Source: a virus
Length of the DNA: 64,000 bases
Strand: one strand, 5' to 3'
Virus record (IMG/VR): IMGVR_UViG_3300018933_000004
Coordinates: 14,791-78,790 of that record
Shown here: one piece after another, positions 14,463 through 27,587 of the stretch
Position numbering within the stretch: the stretch's first letter is position 1
How the letters are laid out: every line of letters starts with the position of its first letter
Notes under the pieces: model-generated
What the model was told of the DNA's origin: nothing
What the model saw: the letters and a program-made list of their open reading frames with translations, nothing else
Database searches by the model: none
Program-made: the position numbers and the translations under genes

Positions 14463-15163
14463 GCGAGCTCAACGACACGGCGATGATCGACAACACGCGC
14501 GCCTCCGAACAGGCAGGCCGCATCATCGGGGAGATCGCCCGCGAGGCCGACGAACCGCTCTCCCCGGACATCGACCCCGACCGCACCCGGGAGACCGCTC
14601 GCACCGGCTTCTCCCGGATGCGGACCGACTGGAGGTCCGGCGAGGGCGCGGAGATCGCGGGGATCACCCAGCAGGCCCAGGGCCTCATCCACCGGGCCTT
14701 CCCCGACGCCTACCTGATCATGAACGAGCTGTGGATGCTCGTCCGCGAGCCGGTCGTCAACGAGACCACCGGCGAGGTCGTCACCGACCTCTTCGGCTGG
14801 CCCCAGTGGAAGAAGTGGCCCTCCGGCGCCTACATCGAGGACTACACCAAGCTCACCAACAGCGAGAAGGACGACTTCCTGCTGCGCATCACCACGCACT
14901 TGCTGGAGTGGGAACAGAAGTCCTCCACGCTGTGGCTGGAGGCCATGCTGGCCAAGGGCCGCTGGGAGGAGGCCATGGCCAGCGGCTTCGTCACGCCGAC
15001 CGGCCGGGTCACCGTCGAGGAGCGCACCCAGCGCGGCCGTGCCTACGCGGCCGAGGACCGCTACCACGCCATCTTCCGCGCCGCCGTCTCCCGCTCCGCC
15101 GAGGCCCTCGTGAAGAGCCTGGAACGGATCGGCCAGCGCCTGAAGGACTCTCTGACGGCCTGA
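14459..15163 (+). CDS. Hypothetical helical protein
   Basis: 234-aa ORF, operon context, typical codon usage. Confidence 0.75.
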   Translation: MSELNDTAMIDNTRASEQAGRIIGEIAREADEPLSPDIDPDRTRETARTGFSRMRTDWRSGEGAEIAGITQQAQGLIHRAFPDAYLIMNELWMLVREPVVNETTGEVVTDLFGWPQWKKWPSGAYIEDYTKLTNSEKDDFLLRITTHLLEWEQKSSTLWLEAMLAKGRWEEAMASGFVTPTGRVTVEERTQRGRAYAAEDRYHAIFRAAVSRSAEALVKSLERIGQRLKDSLTA

Positions 15164-20356: not shown

Positions 20357-20673
20357 CGGGTTCTCCTCGAACTGGCGGGATTACAAGGAGGGTTGGCCAA
20401 CCCGGTGACACCACAGTAGAGGGACGAAGGTCCAGGTCAAAGCCTCGTCGCGGCGGCCGGGAAACGGCTGCGGGAGCCCGATCCGGCGATTCTCGCCTCC
20501 GATGGCCGCCGCAGCATGGCCGTGAAGCACTCTCGGAGCGCGAACGGGTGCCGAGAAGGGCGTACGCGGGTCAGAACCGCTACCCGCACCTTGTTCATAA
20601 CAGTCAGGTAACGGTTGTGGGGTGCTGTGCAGAGCCTCCCCGCCGCCACCAAGGGGCGAGGAGGGCGCCCCGC

Positions 20674-22872
20674 ATGAGCAGCAAGTACGAGGACACCTCG
20701 CCGCTGGCGAGCTTCGACCCACTAGCCATCCACCAGCTGTACCTCGGGCTTGAGGTGCCCGACCCGATCACGTTCGTGGTCTCCCCGAAGTACCTGAACC
20801 GGCCGAACCTCTATCCGCGCCAGGCCACCCTCATGAAGGTGTTCTTCCTGCGCGAGGACCTCTTCACCGAGTACGACTACCGGGTCGTCGCCGAGTGGGA
20901 CGAGTCCTACCGCACCGCCAAGAGCGCCAACGAGCAGCGCGCCGCCCGCGCCGCCGAGCTCGCCGAGCAGAACGCCGAAGAGGCCCTCGCGGCCGAAGTC
21001 GACGGCATCATGACCGACGCCCTCGACGAGCTCGCCGCGCAAGCCCTGCTGGAGGGCAACGAGGACGCTCCCAAAATGCCCCTGTCCGGCTCCCCGGACC
21101 TCCTGGGCCGCATGCGCGCCTGCAAGGCCCTCGGCTACCGCTGGTTCAAGGAAATCCTGCTGGTCATGGGCCGCCGAGCAGGCAAGGGCCACATCTCCGC
21201 CATCGCCATGAGCTACGTCCTGTGGTGCTACATGGCCAAGGGCGACCCCCAGGAGTTCTACGGCGTCGACCGCGACAAAAAACTAGCAGTGCTAATTTTT
21301 GCCGGTAAGCGCGACCAGGCCAAGCAGAACCTCTGGCGCGACCTCGTCAACGTCGTCACCGGCGCCCCGTGCTTCGCCCCCTACATCGCCAGCTCCCTCG
21401 GCGAGAAGCTCAGCGTGTACGCGCCGAACGACTACATCCGCATGGACGAGATGCGTAAGAAGGGCATCAAGACGGCCATGGACATGGCCACCTTCGAGAT
21501 CCTCCCGAAGGAGTCCACCGTCATGGCCGGTCGAGGCCCGGCCTCCATGATCCTCGGCTTCGACGAGATGGCCCACGTCGTCGCCTCCGGCGCCAACCGC
21601 TCCGCAGGCGAGGTCTACGACGCCTCCGTCCCCTCCCTCGACCAGTTCGGCAAGGACGGCTTCATCGTCGAACCCAGCTCGCCGTGGGAGATGAGCGGCA
21701 AGTTCTACGACAACTGGCTGCGCGCCACCCAGTTCGAGGTCGACGGCACCCCCACCTACCCCTCCGTCATGATGATCCAGCTCCCCAGCTGGGACATCTA
21801 CCTCGACTGGCAGATCGCCCACGAACTGCCCCTCTTCCCCGAGGGCTTCACCGGCGACAACGGCGAGTACGCCGACTGCGAACCGCCCGGCTTCAAGCCA
21901 CTCAAGGGCGCCATCCAGAACTACGACGAAGAGATGCGCAAGCTGGAGAAGGCGGACCCCGACACCTTCGCCGTCGAGCGCCGCGCCCAGTGGGCCACCG
22001 TCCTGGACGCCTACCTGAATCCGGACAAGGTCGAGGCCGTCTTCGGCCCCTGGTACGAGCGCCCCGCCCAGTACGGAGGCCCGCTCATCCTCCCCACCCA
22101 GCAGGGCATCCTCTCCTACGCCTACAAGGGCCACGCCGACCCCAGCTCCGTGAACTGCCGCTTCGGTGTCGCCGTCGCCCACACCGAGGTCGACACCGAA
22201 GGCCGCCCCCACGTCGTCTTCGACAAGATCCACTACTTCGACCCGGCCGACTTCCCCGGGCACACCATCGACTACGAGCAGGTCGAGGACTGGATCTGGG
22301 ACGAGATCATCGCCCCCTACCAGCCCGAGGAATTCACCTTCGACCAATACCAGAGCGTCGGCAGCATCCAGAAACTGGTCAAGAAGGTCGCCCGCACCCG
22401 CCTGGCCAAGCCGGTCTCCATCTACGAGCGCACCGCCACCAACGCGATCAACTGGAAGTACGCCGAGACCTTCAAGGCCGCGATCAACATGGGCCTGGTC
22501 CACGCCCCCGATCACAACGAGGGCATGCTGGAACTGAAGTTCCTCCAGAAGCCGCCGGGCATCAACCGCGTCGACCACCCCACCGTCGGCCCCGTCCAGA
22601 CCAAGGACATCGCCGACGCCATCATGATCACCACCTACGCCCTCATCGGCGACTGGATCGCGGGCTACAAGGAGATGCTCAACGCCGCCACACCGACCGG
22701 CGTACTCCAGGGCGGCCTGCACGGCACCAGCGCCCGCACCCCCGACATGGCCGCCCCCGACTACGACATGCAGGCACGCCTGGATGCCCTGCGCAGCTTC
22801 ACCCGCACCCGTACAGGACGCATGGGCTGGGAACAAGGCCTCGGCCGCACAAGGACCGGATATCGCCGCTGA
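20674..22872 (+). CDS. terL: Terminase large subunit
   Basis: YPRQ adenine motif; Walker A MGRRAGKG; Walker B ILGFDEMAH; SSPWEMSGKFY; RNase H-like C-terminus ending KDIADAI; GAGGAGG RBS before ATG 20674. Confidence 0.85.
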   Translation: MSSKYEDTSPLASFDPLAIHQLYLGLEVPDPITFVVSPKYLNRPNLYPRQATLMKVFFLREDLFTEYDYRVVAEWDESYRTAKSANEQRAARAAELAEQNAEEALAAEVDGIMTDALDELAAQALLEGNEDAPKMPLSGSPDLLGRMRACKALGYRWFKEILLVMGRRAGKGHISAIAMSYVLWCYMAKGDPQEFYGVDRDKKLAVLIFAGKRDQAKQNLWRDLVNVVTGAPCFAPYIASSLGEKLSVYAPNDYIRMDEMRKKGIKTAMDMATFEILPKESTVMAGRGPASMILGFDEMAHVVASGANRSAGEVYDASVPSLDQFGKDGFIVEPSSPWEMSGKFYDNWLRATQFEVDGTPTYPSVMMIQLPSWDIYLDWQIAHELPLFPEGFTGDNGEYADCEPPGFKPLKGAIQNYDEEMRKLEKADPDTFAVERRAQWATVLDAYLNPDKVEAVFGPWYERPAQYGGPLILPTQQGILSYAYKGHADPSSVNCRFGVAVAHTEVDTEGRPHVVFDKIHYFDPADFPGHTIDYEQVEDWIWDEIIAPYQPEEFTFDQYQSVGSIQKLVKKVARTRLAKPVSIYERTATNAINWKYAETFKAAINMGLVHAPDHNEGMLELKFLQKPPGINRVDHPTVGPVQTKDIADAIMITTYALIGDWIAGYKEMLNAATPTGVLQGGLHGTSARTPDMAAPDYDMQARLDALRSFTRTRTGRMGWEQGLGRTRTGYRR

Positions 22873-23175: not shown

Positions 23176-25824
23176 ATGACGGACATCAGCGCGACCAGCT
23201 TCTTCCGCCAGGCCAGTGCGGCCGACAGTGGCGGCATCGACTTCGAGCACGAGGAGATCGACACCGGCGGCAGCAAGCGCCCCACCAAGATCCACCTGCA
23301 TGCCGTCGACCCCGACTCCGGCGACCGCATGGGCACCCTCACCTATCACGTACCCCGCCGCAAGGCCGACAAGATCCTCGTCGAGCACCTCGGCACCGAG
23401 GAGACCCACCAGGGCAAGGGCGTCGCCTCCGCCCTCATGGACGAGATGCAGCGCCGCCACCCCGCCACCCCCATAGATCACGGCGACCGCACTGACGCGG
23501 GCAAGGGCTGGTGGAACAAGTACACCGACGGCAAGACCGTCCGACGCGGACGCACCATGGCCTCTCGTACCACGGCCACCGTCCCAGAGACGTACGCGCG
23601 CGGGGAAGGCGAGGACTGGCTGGACCACCAGAACCGCGTCCGGCGCGGCCTGTCTCTCGGTCACCTCACCTACATGCAGGCGCGCGACCACGGCTACAGC
23701 GGCGACGCACGCCAGGACACACGCGACGACTGGACCGGCCAGCACACCGAGGGCAAAGGCTGGCAGCCGCTTCCGCCCAATCTCTACCACACCACCACCG
23801 ACGCCGCCGGAGTCATGGCCCACGGCCTCAAGAGCGGCAACGAACTCGGCCAGAAACGTGGCCACGGCCTGGGCGGCACACCTGAGTGGCTGTCCATGAC
23901 CGACCGCGAAGACCACGCCCACAGCATGCTCGACGCCCTGCACGAGTACCACGCCCACCTCAACGGCAAGACCACCTACGCCGACCTGCACCGCGCGGCC
24001 CAGAACGCCGAGGGCGCCGAGAAGCCCTTCCACGACGCGTTCGAGCAGGGCGTCACCGGCGGCCACAACGACCACGCCAAGGACTCCATCCGGCGCGGCA
24101 AACGCCTGGAGCCCGGCTTCGCCTCCTACGACGAGGCCAAGGAGAAGGGCTGGACACCCCACCCGACGCTCCACCGCAACCTCGGAGTCGGCAAGAACGA
24201 CCAGGAGTTCGGCACCGGCTGGGAACGCGAACCCACCGTTGAGGAACGCCACGATGAGTACGGCGCCTTCTCCCGCGCCCGCCAGTGGTCCGGCAAGGGC
24301 AAGCCGTCGATCTTGTTCACCTCCAACGACCGCGAGGAATTCGCCAAGAAAGACCCCTCCAACTTCGCCGTTCTCCACGTCCGCCCCCGGCCCGGTGCCC
24401 ACGGCTTCCCCATGAAGACCGAGCACGAGTGGCGCACCGGCACCGGCGACGCCGTCGAGGTCCACGGCGAACCCATCCGCCGCCAGGCCGCCGCCACCAA
24501 GCTGTGCCCCTGCTGCGGCGGCACCGGCGAGCACGACACTGGCTTCGAGTGCTACCACTGCGACGGCGGCCCCGACGACGCCACCTGCGACGGACGCCTC
24601 CTCGACGGCGGCCACAGCAAGACGGCCGCCCTGCGGACGATGCAGCCCGAGGAATACCGGGCCCTCTCCTTCCCTGACCACCCCGGCCGCAGCCTCGACC
24701 AGGTCGCCCAGCGCCTTCAGAAGGCCAGCCCCGAGTACTACACCCAGCTCAAAGAGCACGCTGCACAGCACGGCATCCAGACCCCTGTGCTGCTCGACGG
24801 CAGCCAGGTGATGGACGGCCACCACCGGCTTTCCGTCGCCCATGAGCTGGGCCTGCCCGTGCCGGTCGGCGACTACAACAACGAGACGCACTACAACCAG
24901 GCGATGGACCACCCCCTGGCCAAGGAGTGGTACCGCAAGCGCACCGACCTCGGCGTCCGCCGGATCGCCTTCGCCACCCCTGTCCCGGACAACCGCGAGC
25001 CCTACCAGCACGAGCACCCCTGGCTGCCCCGAGACCACTTCTTCGCCCCCGGCGAAAAGGACCTGGACCCGCGCCTGTTCGACGAGAACGATCGCATGCA
25101 CCCCATCGTCCGCCAGCACATCCTCAGCCTGCTCAACGGCTTCTGGGCGCCCAAGTACGGCGACGCCTGGCAGTCCTGGGCCCGCGTCTACCTCGCCGGA
25201 TCCGAGGCCAGCCACTTCTACGGCAACGGCGACCTCGACATCCTCATCGGCGTCGACTACGCCCGCGCCCGCGAACACGCCCCAGCCCTCGCCAGCCTCT
25301 CCGACGAGGAGATCAGCACCCACCTCACCGACGAGCTGCGCCACGGCCTCAACGACGACGCCCGCATGCTCCCCGGCCCGGACGGCAAAGAGACCGGCCC
25401 CTGGGAAAATACTTGGTATGTGAACGAATCGTCGTTCGATATCAGGGCGATCAAGCCGTACGCCGCCTACGACATCACCCGAGACGAATGGGCCGTCAAG
25501 CCGGTAGAGGTACCTGACGACTTCGGGCCCGAGAAGCTCCCCGAAAGCACTTGGGACGTGTTCGAAGCAGTGCAGAAGCTGATCGGCGCCATCCGGGAAC
25601 TTCCCGACGGTGTACGTGAAAGAGAAGGGGCTGCACTGTACGATTACCTCCACACTGACCGCCACAGTGCATTCGGGCCCGAGGGATCGGGCCTCTACGA
25701 CCCTGCAAACGCCGTCTGGAAAGCTCTCGACAAGGCCCCAGGCCAGCCGCTGCAGCAGCTCATCGACTGGAAGCACGCCCACGACGGCGTGGCCGCCGCC
25801 ACGGACCAGGAGAAGGCCGCATGA
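23176..25824 (+). CDS. Polyvalent protein: GNAT-like, ART-like, Zn finger, ParB-like, nucleotidyltransferase
   Basis: HQGKGVASALM (GNAT motif A); LYHTT...GLKSG (ART-like); CPCCGGTG...CYHCDG; VMDGHHRL (ParB/Srx); LAGSEAS...GDLDILI (Pol-beta NTase). Confidence 0.75.
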   Translation: MTDISATSFFRQASAADSGGIDFEHEEIDTGGSKRPTKIHLHAVDPDSGDRMGTLTYHVPRRKADKILVEHLGTEETHQGKGVASALMDEMQRRHPATPIDHGDRTDAGKGWWNKYTDGKTVRRGRTMASRTTATVPETYARGEGEDWLDHQNRVRRGLSLGHLTYMQARDHGYSGDARQDTRDDWTGQHTEGKGWQPLPPNLYHTTTDAAGVMAHGLKSGNELGQKRGHGLGGTPEWLSMTDREDHAHSMLDALHEYHAHLNGKTTYADLHRAAQNAEGAEKPFHDAFEQGVTGGHNDHAKDSIRRGKRLEPGFASYDEAKEKGWTPHPTLHRNLGVGKNDQEFGTGWEREPTVEERHDEYGAFSRARQWSGKGKPSILFTSNDREEFAKKDPSNFAVLHVRPRPGAHGFPMKTEHEWRTGTGDAVEVHGEPIRRQAAATKLCPCCGGTGEHDTGFECYHCDGGPDDATCDGRLLDGGHSKTAALRTMQPEEYRALSFPDHPGRSLDQVAQRLQKASPEYYTQLKEHAAQHGIQTPVLLDGSQVMDGHHRLSVAHELGLPVPVGDYNNETHYNQAMDHPLAKEWYRKRTDLGVRRIAFATPVPDNREPYQHEHPWLPRDHFFAPGEKDLDPRLFDENDRMHPIVRQHILSLLNGFWAPKYGDAWQSWARVYLAGSEASHFYGNGDLDILIGVDYARAREHAPALASLSDEEISTHLTDELRHGLNDDARMLPGPDGKETGPWENTWYVNESSFDIRAIKPYAAYDITRDEWAVKPVEVPDDFGPEKLPESTWDVFEAVQKLIGAIRELPDGVREREGAALYDYLHTDRHSAFGPEGSGLYDPANAVWKALDKAPGQPLQQLIDWKHAHDGVAAATDQEKAA

Positions 25825-27587
25825 CCGAGTTCAACGCCGTCGCGTACTTCCGACAGACTGGAGGCATGGCGGAACAGCCTCGCTACTTCCATGGGACTCG
25901 TTATCCCTTCAAGCCCGGGGATCTGATCGAGCCGGGCCGGAAGTCGAACCAGGGGTACGGCCAGGCCAACGACCGGGTCTTCTTCACCCACCGTCCTGAG
26001 ATCGCCAAGCATTTCGCAGACTCTGCCGACGACCCCGAAGGCCACGAGGGTGCCCGCCCCCGGGTGTATGAGGTCGAGCCGACCGGCCCGCACGAGCTGG
26101 ACACGGACGAACTGCCCGAAGACGCTGAGCGCGCAGGCTCTCGCCAGAGCCGCCACCCCCTCCGGGTCGTCCAGGAGCACCACTCCACATGGGAGCCGGA
26201 CGAGGATGATCACTTCGATGCCAGCGAGTTCGAGGACGAAGGGTGCGGGGAGTGCGGCAAGGCCATGACGAAGGAGCCGTGGTGCAAGAACTGTGGTGAT
26301 CAGCACCACACGGTCTGCTGCGAGGAGGGCGATGAGCAGCACCACACGGCATCAGTTTCGATCACCGCGACCGCGTTCTTCAAGAAGACGCACGATGCCC
26401 TCGAAGGAGGCAGCAATGGACGAGCCGACCAGGAAAGCGCCCGAACCGCAGGACAAGGACGGCCACGCCGTCAGCCCGGAGCTGGAGGCGAAGCTGCAGG
26501 AGCGGGCCAGGACGCCGCAGGAGGAGCACCTGCCGTGGGAGCCGATCAAGGAGGAGCTGGGCCTGTAGGCCCGCGCCAGGTCTCCTTCCACCCGGCGGCG
26601 AAGAAGGAGCTGCTCAAGCTCGACGGCGCCAGCCGCAAGCGCGTCGCCGCCACCATCAACGCCCTGCAGCGCGGCGACGAGGGCCTGCAGACCCACGCCC
26701 TGACCCAGCCGCTCAAGGGCTGGAGCTCCACCAAAGCCTCGCGCGGCCACCGCGTCATTCACCGCGACCTCGATGACGGCACCCTGCACATCGGATACAT
26801 CGGCCTCCACGAGTACGACAAGGCCATCAACCGGCTCTCCTCGCTGACGGACTTCTTCCGCACGGCGGACCTGCGGGAGACTGCTTCCGTGGACGACGAT
26901 TACCGCATGCAGCACCGGGCTCCCGGCCCGCAGCACGCTCCGCTGCACGACCCGATGACCCACGACGAGTTCGGGCCGTCCGAGACCGTCGACCTCACCC
27001 ACCTCACTCCTCGCACCTCGGCCCTGCAGCTGACTGAGCCCGAGGAGCGCCTGCTGCAGCGTGAGGCGGCCGCCGTCGCCCACGACCACGGCGTCATGGT
27101 CGCCCTCGTCCCGCCGCGCGAGATAGCCGAGCAGCTGGCCATGGCCGACGGGCAGCCGGTCGACGACCTGCACATCACTCTGGCCTACCTGGGCAACGTC
27201 GCCGACTACCGCCCTGACCAGCTCGCCCGGCTCCCGAGGGTCGTCGCGGCCTGGGCATCCGGCCAGCGGCCGGTGACCGTCCGGGTCGGCGGAGTCGGCA
27301 CCTTCAACAACGCCTACAAGGACCAGCACGTCCTGTACGCCGCCATGGACATCCCCGGCGGCGCCCAGGTGCACACCAGCCTCGCCCAGCACCTGGAGAG
27401 GCACGGCTACCGGCTCCCCAGCGAGCACGGATGGACGCCCCACATGACCCTGCGGTACGTCGACCGGCACCACCGGTTCATGCCGCAACTGGACGGACAC
27501 AACTGGGAAGCGACCGAGGTGGTCACCTACCTCTGTGGAGAACGCCACCCGGCCTGCCTCGGCATCCGTCCCACCACCACGCTGTAA
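25821..27587 (+). CDS. Polyvalent protein: Arr-like ADP-ribosyltransferase, RelE/ParE-like toxin, 2H phosphoesterase
   Basis: YFHGT...PGDLIEPG...VYEVEPTG; FHPAAKKELLKLD...HRVIHR; HITL and HMTL 2H motifs. Confidence 0.8.
   Translation: MTEFNAVAYFRQTGGMAEQPRYFHGTRYPFKPGDLIEPGRKSNQGYGQANDRVFFTHRPEIAKHFADSADDPEGHEGARPRVYEVEPTGPHELDTDELPEDAERAGSRQSRHPLRVVQEHHSTWEPDEDDHFDASEFEDEGCGECGKAMTKEPWCKNCGDQHHTVCCEEGDEQHHTASVSITATAFFKKTHDALEGGSNGRADQESARTAGQGRPRRQPGAGGEAAGAGQDAAGGAPAVGADQGGAGPVGPRQVSFHPAAKKELLKLDGASRKRVAATINALQRGDEGLQTHALTQPLKGWSSTKASRGHRVIHRDLDDGTLHIGYIGLHEYDKAINRLSSLTDFFRTADLRETASVDDDYRMQHRAPGPQHAPLHDPMTHDEFGPSETVDLTHLTPRTSALQLTEPEERLLQREAAAVAHDHGVMVALVPPREIAEQLAMADGQPVDDLHITLAYLGNVADYRPDQLARLPRVVAAWASGQRPVTVRVGGVGTFNNAYKDQHVLYAAMDIPGGAQVHTSLAQHLERHGYRLPSEHGWTPHMTLRYVDRHHRFMPQLDGHNWEATEVVTYLCGERHPACLGIRPTTTL
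26416..26568 (+). CDS. Nested antitoxin-like ORF (50 aa, alternate frame)
   Basis: GAAGGAGG RBS 5 nt before ATG 26416; VSPELEAKLQER...LPWEPIKEELGL; ends just before the RelE-like domain. Confidence 0.6.
   Translation: MDEPTRKAPEPQDKDGHAVSPELEAKLQERARTPQEEHLPWEPIKEELGL

Follow-up and report, generated by a model that had tools for sequence, protein, structure and literature searches.

A stretch of viral DNA from the IMG/VR virus record IMGVR_UViG_3300018933_000004 (64,000 nucleotides, positions 14,791 to 78,790 of this 79-kb record; G+C 69%; hereafter the window) encodes a polyvalent protein of 588 amino acids, P0001, which joins a rifampin ADP-ribosyltransferase-like (Arr-type) domain, a domain with the RelE toxin fold and a 2H phosphoesterase in one polypeptide, an architecture that varies among its relatives. 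The linker in front of the RelE-fold domain contains a second gene, P0002, of 50 codons, which lies wholly inside the first in its +1 frame and stops where the domain begins, with evidence of constraint in both frames. Because it is kept in every relative examined, the nested gene is most likely the toxin's built-in antidote, and comparison of the sequences favors, with moderate confidence, a reading in which the linker is read in two frames and the nested peptide neutralises the RelE-fold domain of the polyvalent protein. An antitoxin gene overprinted inside a polyprotein had already been proposed in a first-pass annotation made from the letters alone; the part of that proposal which concerns a conserved nested gene in the position of an antitoxin stands, while the similarities found point only weakly to the peptide being an antitoxin.

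A nested gene and two-frame constraint in the linker

The long open reading frame (ORF) passes through a stretch rich in Gly, Ala, Pro and Arg at about residues 195-252, and the part of it that precedes the RelE fold is predicted by AlphaFold2 (AF2) to be disordered, with a predicted local distance difference test score (pLDDT) of 42-51. Within this stretch, the Shine-Dalgarno (SD) sequence GAAGGAGG stands 5 nt before an ATG at 26416, from which P0002 runs to a C-terminal end of ...LPWEPIKEELGL and a stop codon at 26566-26568. The first strand of the RelE fold (QVSFHP) starts at 26577, 9 nt further on. The first-pass annotation had described a 588-residue ORF crossing a Gly/Ala-rich linker, a 50-residue ORF in another frame with a strong ribosome-binding site, and a stop at 26568 immediately before a RelE-like domain, and all of this geometry is confirmed.

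The nucleotide composition of the overlap follows the small frame. Between 26420 and 26560, the G+C content at third codon positions (GC3) is 0.93-1.00 in the small frame versus 0.41-0.55 in the polyprotein frame, and no other correctly delimited gene of the window shows such a switch, defined by an own GC3 of <=0.6 together with a +1 frame of >=0.9. A programmed frameshift carrying ribosomes from the Arr frame to the small one was set aside, as the ATG is ideally spaced from a strong SD sequence; it is further disfavored by the non-coding composition of the small frame upstream of the ATG, and no slippery site was seen. Elsewhere in the window, the overprinted linker has a weak match of 28 residues at 53683-53766 (61% identity, E 1.4e-4), a likeness that is probably compositional because that frame closes soon after.

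Relatives gathered from viral contigs, genomes, plasmids and assemblies provided 15 related loci. All 15 contain an ATG-started ORF of 47-63 codons that is shifted by +1 against the frame of the RelE-fold domain and terminates where this domain begins, and a good SD-like purine run lies 4-8 nt before its ATG in 13; the two exceptions are L015, which is cut at the contig start, and L018, which has masked bases and only a weak run. Taken together, an SD-like run, ATG and stop are found in 14 of the 15. The ORF is retained in loci whose peptides are <40% identical to P0002 and whatever domain precedes the RelE module, the neighbors of which include ART-PolyVal, ParB-like, GNAT and peptidase domains. 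Some relatives, among them plasmid pRLB1-9.1, have a pair of diverged RelE-fold domains in tandem within a single polyprotein (L001:4820-5416 and L007:4259-4861); in these the peptide ends in ...NELRHRAAVSAQQQ instead of ...EELGL, and the outer-frame RTAG motif described below is not kept.

Across 12 lineages the small frame displays a gene-like composition, with G+C of 0.65-0.83 at first, 0.34-0.53 at second and 0.87-0.98 at third codon positions. Read in the polyprotein frame, the same stretch has 47-66% A/T-ending codons compared with a background of 9% in the genes of the window (binomial P <=1e-12 in each of the 12 lineages). Individual columns of the small frame retain their residues: Pro, Glu, Trp, Gly and Leu are invariant while the third position changes, Arg is retained through CGG and AGG, and three Leu/Ile/Val columns keep an invariant middle T. 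The conserved part of the peptide comprises only about 30 C-terminal residues.

The peptide family is tiny, with 11 matches among 1.84 billion cluster representatives, and this search found no free-standing close relative of P0002. The DNA around five of the 11 was read (P0026, P0027, P0030, P0032 and P0034), and each precedes a RelE-fold domain. Scans with the RelE-domain profile found three loci in genome contigs and two in viral contigs, and a search of plasmid DNA matched P0001 in its 2H part only. The RelE module belongs to a rare family, restricted to Streptomyces replicons about 150-157 kb long.

That the polyprotein frame is open across P0002 proves nothing in itself, because its first codon position is the G/C-rich third position of the small frame, which makes stops nearly impossible. 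Other observations speak for the outer frame. In at least eight lineages, upstream domains are read without a stop into the RelE domain; these include the Arr domain in the window, a ParB-like domain (L005), domains of the ADP-ribosyltransferase (ART) type (L016, L017), a GNAT domain (L010) and an HExxH peptidase (pRLB1-9.1). Two relatives called from an internal GTG (L012, L014), and one in which the RelE domain comes first (L007), possess an in-frame MTE..FFR leader upstream with an ATGA overlap, and L013 has a GTG with an SD sequence and a similar leader.

At a distance of about 35-45 residues ahead of the RelE fold, the outer frame also retains a motif (the RTAG motif), RTAGQGRPRRQP in the window with the consensus RTAGRGKPRRQP, which is shared by 11 of the 12 lineages; L022 is divergent there. 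Its codons vary (ACC/ACA/ACT/ACG, GGA/GGC/GGT, CCA/CCG and CGN), all four Thr codons being used, and the ratio of nonsynonymous to synonymous change (pN/pS) over the same nucleotides is 0.29-0.35 in the polyprotein frame versus 0.81-0.91 in the small frame. Given the predicted disorder of the entire linker, this conserved segment is probably a short linear motif, which might serve as a cleavage site, an RNA or ribosome contact, or a packaging signal. Both frames look constrained, since codon composition tracks the small frame while the motif is kept synonymously in the polyprotein frame. About 150 nt thus appear to be shared by dividing the constraint, with the 5' half answering to the outer frame and the 3' half to the inner one.

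The RelE-fold domain and its candidate antitoxin

The assignment of the downstream domain to the RelE/ParE superfamily (BECR fold), already made in the first-pass annotation, is supported by structure prediction and by remote homology. The AF2 model reaches a pLDDT of 91.2, with secondary-structure elements in the order E-H-H-E-E-E-E-H, and the best Foldseek matches in the PDB are YafQ, RelK (Rv3358), YoeB and RelE, with template modeling (TM) scores of 0.68-0.81. All 35 Foldseek matches at E <=0.001 (TM 0.6-0.8) are RelE-superfamily toxins, except the insecticidal toxin Txp40. When the profile of an alignment of 18 homologous segments was compared with the PDB, RelK (E 0.004) and YoeB ranked first.

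The family is visible only through the members of this alignment, NCBIfam and the fold search, because the RelE segment of the window, taken alone, has no Pfam match at E <=1. The curated cut-offs of PF05016, PF06769, TIGR02385 and TIGR00053 are reached neither by the members of the alignment nor by the domain of the window, and the matches lie below threshold: ParE_toxin in eight of 18 members (best E 0.0076), RelE_StbE in nine, YafQ in four, and TIGR02385 for the domain of the window itself (E 0.059). A search for stand-alone, monodomain relatives of the domain gave a single match, a contig-truncated fragment. With no free-standing close relative found for the domain or for the peptide, the capture of a whole toxin-antitoxin pair, which the first-pass annotation had proposed, is a hypothetical origin.

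Alignments of hidden Markov models (HMMs) place H292, R311, H330 and Y332 with E46, R65, H83 and Y84 of YoeB or with His positions of YafQ. These residues are invariant or nearly so and are candidate catalytic residues, and the domain, which is basic with an isoelectric point (pI) of 9.9, may plausibly be an active RNase.

The strongest argument for the identity of the peptide as an antitoxin is its position. P0002 lies directly 5' of a RelE-fold toxin, as the antitoxin genes do in relBE, yefM-yoeB and dinJ-yafQ, and the small gene beside the toxin is fixed in 15 loci; being nested, it is also co-transcribed with the toxin. The peptide is acidic (pI 4.2-4.9) in eight of 12 lineages, including the clade of the window (4.2-4.7).

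Sequence similarity adds a weaker indication. Searches of P0002 and its family against Pfam, PHROGs and PDB profiles gave no meaningful match, those to Rod_cone_degen and mS53 being due to chance. The comparison with addiction-module antitoxin models that the first-pass annotation had recommended found TIGR02574 in three of 19 family members (best E 0.0065; cut-off 31.9 bits) and a RelB-like model in two of 19, all below threshold and none for P0002 itself. In hhalign, against an alignment of 20 actinobacterial TIGR02574 proteins, the last 31 residues of the peptide fall on the C-terminal half of the family with 42% probability (P 2.7e-4). The C-terminal pattern of the peptide, xPExEaELxxR ... 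hPWExhkxxL, there aligns with the segment xLTxEQxAELDRRL...WEEV..RL of TIGR02574 / PF09720 (Unstab_antitox, "putative addiction module component"); unlike that family, the peptide lacks the N-terminal helix ERLxLxEELWESL. An addiction-module-like ending, as the first-pass annotation put it, is a fair description, and the peptide is at most a putative member of the family. Among the genes that follow sampled TIGR02574 genes, ParE_toxin was found in four of six tested. A language-model look-up gave RelB3_C and Unstab_antitox as the nearest clusters, with scores of 0.77-0.80 that serve as leads only. A predicted complex of the RelE domain and the small protein was counted neither way, one unrelated control having scored equally high.

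Several observations weigh against an antitoxin in a second frame. No curated antitoxin model was matched above threshold in Pfam or NCBIfam, and searches of Pfam, NCBIfam and PDB profiles for ribbon-helix-helix (RHH), helix-turn-helix (HTH), AbrB or Phd domains found no DNA-binding domain in the peptide of 47-63 residues. The peptide is not acidic in every lineage (pI 9.3 in L022), and the relatives with tandem RelE domains carry the nested ORF before the first of them only. In the conserved 3' half, summed Nei-Gojobori estimates give a small-frame pN/pS of about 1.0 versus 0.84 in the polyprotein frame, which does not separate the two, and differences in codon-position diversity are not clear-cut there. 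As these measures do not discriminate, the case for selection on the small frame rests on composition, on the conservation of start and stop, and on individual columns. Finally, an internal GTG start could yield a conventional antitoxin-toxin pair, a possibility weighed in the next section.

Proposed mechanism, rival readings and known systems

If the nested peptide is an antidote, ribosomes starting at 25821 would read the linker including RTAGRGKPRRQP, and those starting at the internal GAAGGAGG-ATG (26416) would make the acidic peptide of 50 residues. Internal initiation at a strong SD sequence would keep the peptide in excess while the polyprotein is made, and the peptide would bind and mask the RelE-fold domain in the producing cell. 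Where the peptide, presumed to be labile, is absent or degraded, the RelE-fold domain would be free to cut RNA. The toxin might then act in a newly entered cell, provided that the polyprotein travels with the DNA, and the domain may first be released at the FFR-type motifs that flank it.

Lying in the 5' linker of the module itself, the candidate antidote gene would accompany the toxin domain when the domains are reshuffled by recombination. A broader proposal, for which the chances appear evenly balanced, is that the RelE module constitutes a self-contained toxin-plus-antidote cassette for in-frame shuffling, by which the producer would be protected wherever the module is inserted, with the constraint on the linker split between an outer 5' motif and an inner 3' binding segment.

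The most serious alternative is an ordinary bicistronic antitoxin-toxin pair, in which a toxin of about 350 amino acids comprising the RelE and 2H domains would start at the GTG at 26535, with a 34-nt overlap with the small gene as in many type II operons, and read-through from the Arr domain would be secondary or incidental. The first-pass annotation had stated that the RelE domain has no start codon of its own nearby, which is incorrect, for GGAGGAG (26520-26526) lies 8 nt upstream of this in-frame GTG (26535-26537), from which a second, RelE-2H product may be made. Of 12 lineages, 10 have an in-frame GTG at a distance of 12-18 codons before the RelE strand; in seven it occupies the aligned position, and further placements follow the sequence alignment. 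Gene callers start at least seven relatives at the internal GTG (P0008, P0009, P0011 and P0014-P0017). Nevertheless, the GTG, where present, is forced by the Pro-Trp codons of the peptide, and L010 and L021 have no in-frame start codon near the RelE domain. The RTAGRGKPRRQP motif, under purifying selection in the polyprotein frame, lies upstream of the GTG, and ribosomes translating the upstream domains, which are not closed by a stop codon, must enter the RelE domain. Moreover, in L012, L014 and L007 the in-frame leader and its ATGA overlap come ahead of the linker, an arrangement shared by the starts of all other polyvalent genes. With this evidence on both sides, a conventional bicistronic pair is considered unlikely.

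Somewhat less probable still is that the small protein is real and serves another role, either as a chaperone or packaging adaptor or as an ORF whose translation tunes ribosome traffic or initiation on the polyprotein message. Its place outside all curated antitoxin families, its want of a DNA-binding domain and the restriction of conservation to about 30 C-terminal residues would suit such roles. On the other hand, the peptide is strictly tied to the RelE-fold domain, at a fixed position in 15 loci, and was never seen elsewhere (11 matches, five of them read); its C-terminal pattern resembles that of the TIGR02574 antitoxins, and the conservation of its amino acids speaks against an ORF that acts purely in cis. 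That the small ORF is untranslated, an incidental effect of low sequence complexity in the linker of a GC-rich genome, is very improbable: although the +1 frame of a linker rich in Gly, Ala, Pro and Arg rarely has stops, the polyprotein itself demands indels in multiples of three and the summed small-frame pN/pS is about 1, such a by-product would not explain the excess of A/T-ending codons in each of the 12 lineages, the ATG and boundary stop kept in 15 loci with a good SD-like run in 13, or a frame-switch signature unique in the window.

The reading of P0002 as a nested antidote finds partial parallels in several known systems. The domains listed for the polyvalent proteins of phages and conjugative elements in an earlier account (Iyer, Burroughs, Anand, de Souza, Aravind 2017, PMC5512222) include 2H, ART, GNAT, ParB and BECR-fold RNase domains. 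That account gives no immunity or antitoxin gene for any domain, and the term "immunity protein" occurs in it 0 times. Like the proteins it describes, P0001 combines unrelated effector domains in one polypeptide, has a packaging-gene neighbor, and is reshuffled in domain order between orthologous elements. Unlike them, it carries an RNase of the RelE/YoeB/YafQ type rather than PBECR (the PBECR families were not compared directly) and a candidate immunity gene in the alternate frame of a linker. Polyvalent proteins are regarded as weapons that phages and plasmids inject, and the survival of the producer cell is not addressed in that work (PMC5512222); a hidden out-of-frame antidote, if real, would explain such survival for one domain type.

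The resemblance to the RelBE, YefM-YoeB and DinJ-YafQ operons consists in a small, mostly acidic gene 5' of a RelE-fold toxin, its end overlapping a possible toxin start. In contrast to these type II operons, the toxin here is one domain of a 588-residue multi-enzyme protein, the candidate antitoxin lies wholly inside its gene in another frame, and the peptide has no DNA-binding domain, with no regulator identified. PaaA2 of the paaR2-paaA2-parE2 system is likewise a small antitoxin without a DNA-binding domain. If the nested peptide is an antitoxin, it would, lacking such a domain, correspond to the neutralising segment only, as in PaaA2.

Nesting of whole genes is known from Rz/Rz1 of phage lambda, where one gene lies entirely in the +1 frame of the other and the two products cooperate in lysis. 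P0001 and P0002 share this complete nesting in the +1 frame, but their function is unrelated and the constraint is partitioned between the frames. Should the antidote be confirmed, the pair would show clearly, in a natural example, how overlapping genes can divide sequence constraint.

A published survey (Gerdes 2025, PMC11980606) describes "mono-gene" modules, in which antitoxin and toxin are fused in frame, and RelE/ParE toxins of several domains; it set aside multidomain RelE proteins without an identifiable antitoxin gene or domain. P0001 resembles these modules in placing a RelE-superfamily domain in a larger protein and in holding toxin and putative antidote within one gene-length of DNA. 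In the mono-gene modules, toxin and antitoxin share a frame as domains of one protein, whereas the candidate antidote here would be made separately, from a second frame. A survey of this kind (PMC11980606) would overlook a gene nested in another frame, and this, if the antidote is real, would account for the failure of such surveys to find antitoxins for multidomain RelE proteins. Open-access literature text yielded no account of an antitoxin-like gene placed in a second frame within a gene that carries a toxin.

Public gene calls show a recurring pattern at these loci: where the small ORF is called, the RelE polyprotein is truncated at the internal GTG, and where the long ORF is called, the small one is omitted. 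The overlap thus misleads standard gene calling in a systematic way and leaves an annotation artefact, the polyprotein being truncated in at least seven database entries.

Domain architecture and element context

The features of the polyvalent gene are compiled in Table 1. Pfam matches of P0001 homologues comprise ART-PolyVal, Arr-ms and 2H domains in shuffled order. The 2H domain of P0001 contains two HxT motifs, HITL at 27171-27182 and HMTL at 27441-27452, and the protein has no peptidase domain.

Table 1. Features of the polyvalent gene and its nested gene, in window coordinates.
Feature	Position	Strand	Remark
Polyvalent-protein gene P0001	25821..27587	+	Start codon and the stop of the preceding polyvalent gene overlap as ATGA
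Leader motif NAVAYFRQ (type MTExxAxxFFRQ)	25833..25856	+	N-terminal; recurs at domain boundaries
Arr-type (rifampin ADP-ribosyltransferase-like) ART domain	25884..26180	+	Residues 22-120; Pfam PF12120, E 1.9e-13
Cys cluster (CxxC...CxxC...CC), possible zinc ribbon	26244..26321	+	Sequence reading; no family match
Domain-boundary motif SITATAFFKK	26358..26387	+	
SD sequence GAAGGAGG of the nested ORF	26403..26410	+	Glu-Gly-Gly in the polyprotein frame
Nested 50-codon gene P0002, candidate antitoxin/immunity protein	26416..26568	+	+1 frame
Polyprotein-frame motif RTAGQGRPRRQP	26442..26477	+	Kept by synonymous change; overlaps the nested gene in its variable 5' half
Possible internal start of a RelE-2H product	26520..26537	+	GGAGGAG, 8-nt spacer, in-frame GTG
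RelE/YoeB/YafQ-fold domain	26568..26846	+	Residues 250-342; AF2, Foldseek, profile versus PDB
Domain-boundary motif SSLTDFFRT	26838..26864	+	
2H phosphoesterase (LigT-like)	27120..27467	+	About residues 434-549; Pfam PF13563 E 1.3e-12, PF02834 E 6.4e-10

Every polyvalent ORF begins with a motif of the type [ST]xTA/DxFF[RK], there in the form MTExxAxxFFRQ and joined to the preceding gene by an ATGA overlap, and further copies lie between domains. The motif is seen in the window at 23188 and at the three sites listed in Table 1, as well as in L005, L007, L010, L012 and L014, and it brackets the RelE module on both sides. Such boundary motifs may mark where the protein is processed or targeted, or may be joints at which recombination shuffles the domains, and their recurrence suggests that the polyprotein may be processed.

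The related replicons are circular, 150-157 kb in size and deposited as Streptomyces plasmids, and the source of the window is a Streptomyces phage-plasmid-like element of roughly 155 kb. Among sequencing runs, the only match listed is a biocrust metagenome, from which this DNA may have come, and no RNA data set is listed. Directly upstream of two polyvalent genes, a 774-residue ORF (20548-22872) has a weak match to the terminase large subunit (PHROG 2, E 8e-14), and 2H domains occur in head-protein fusions of Streptomyces phages. By analogy with these neighbors and fusions and with the published polyvalent model (PMC5512222), the polyprotein may be delivered in the virion, as the first-pass annotation had proposed. 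The window also encodes a DnaE-type polymerase, RecA, a Toprim protein, two tyrosine recombinases and a DUF2637 protein. Between polyvalent genes in a related locus (L013:3520-3700), two GC-rich, hairpin-like stretches with a T-arm-like GGTTCGAxTCC recall tRNA-like elements.

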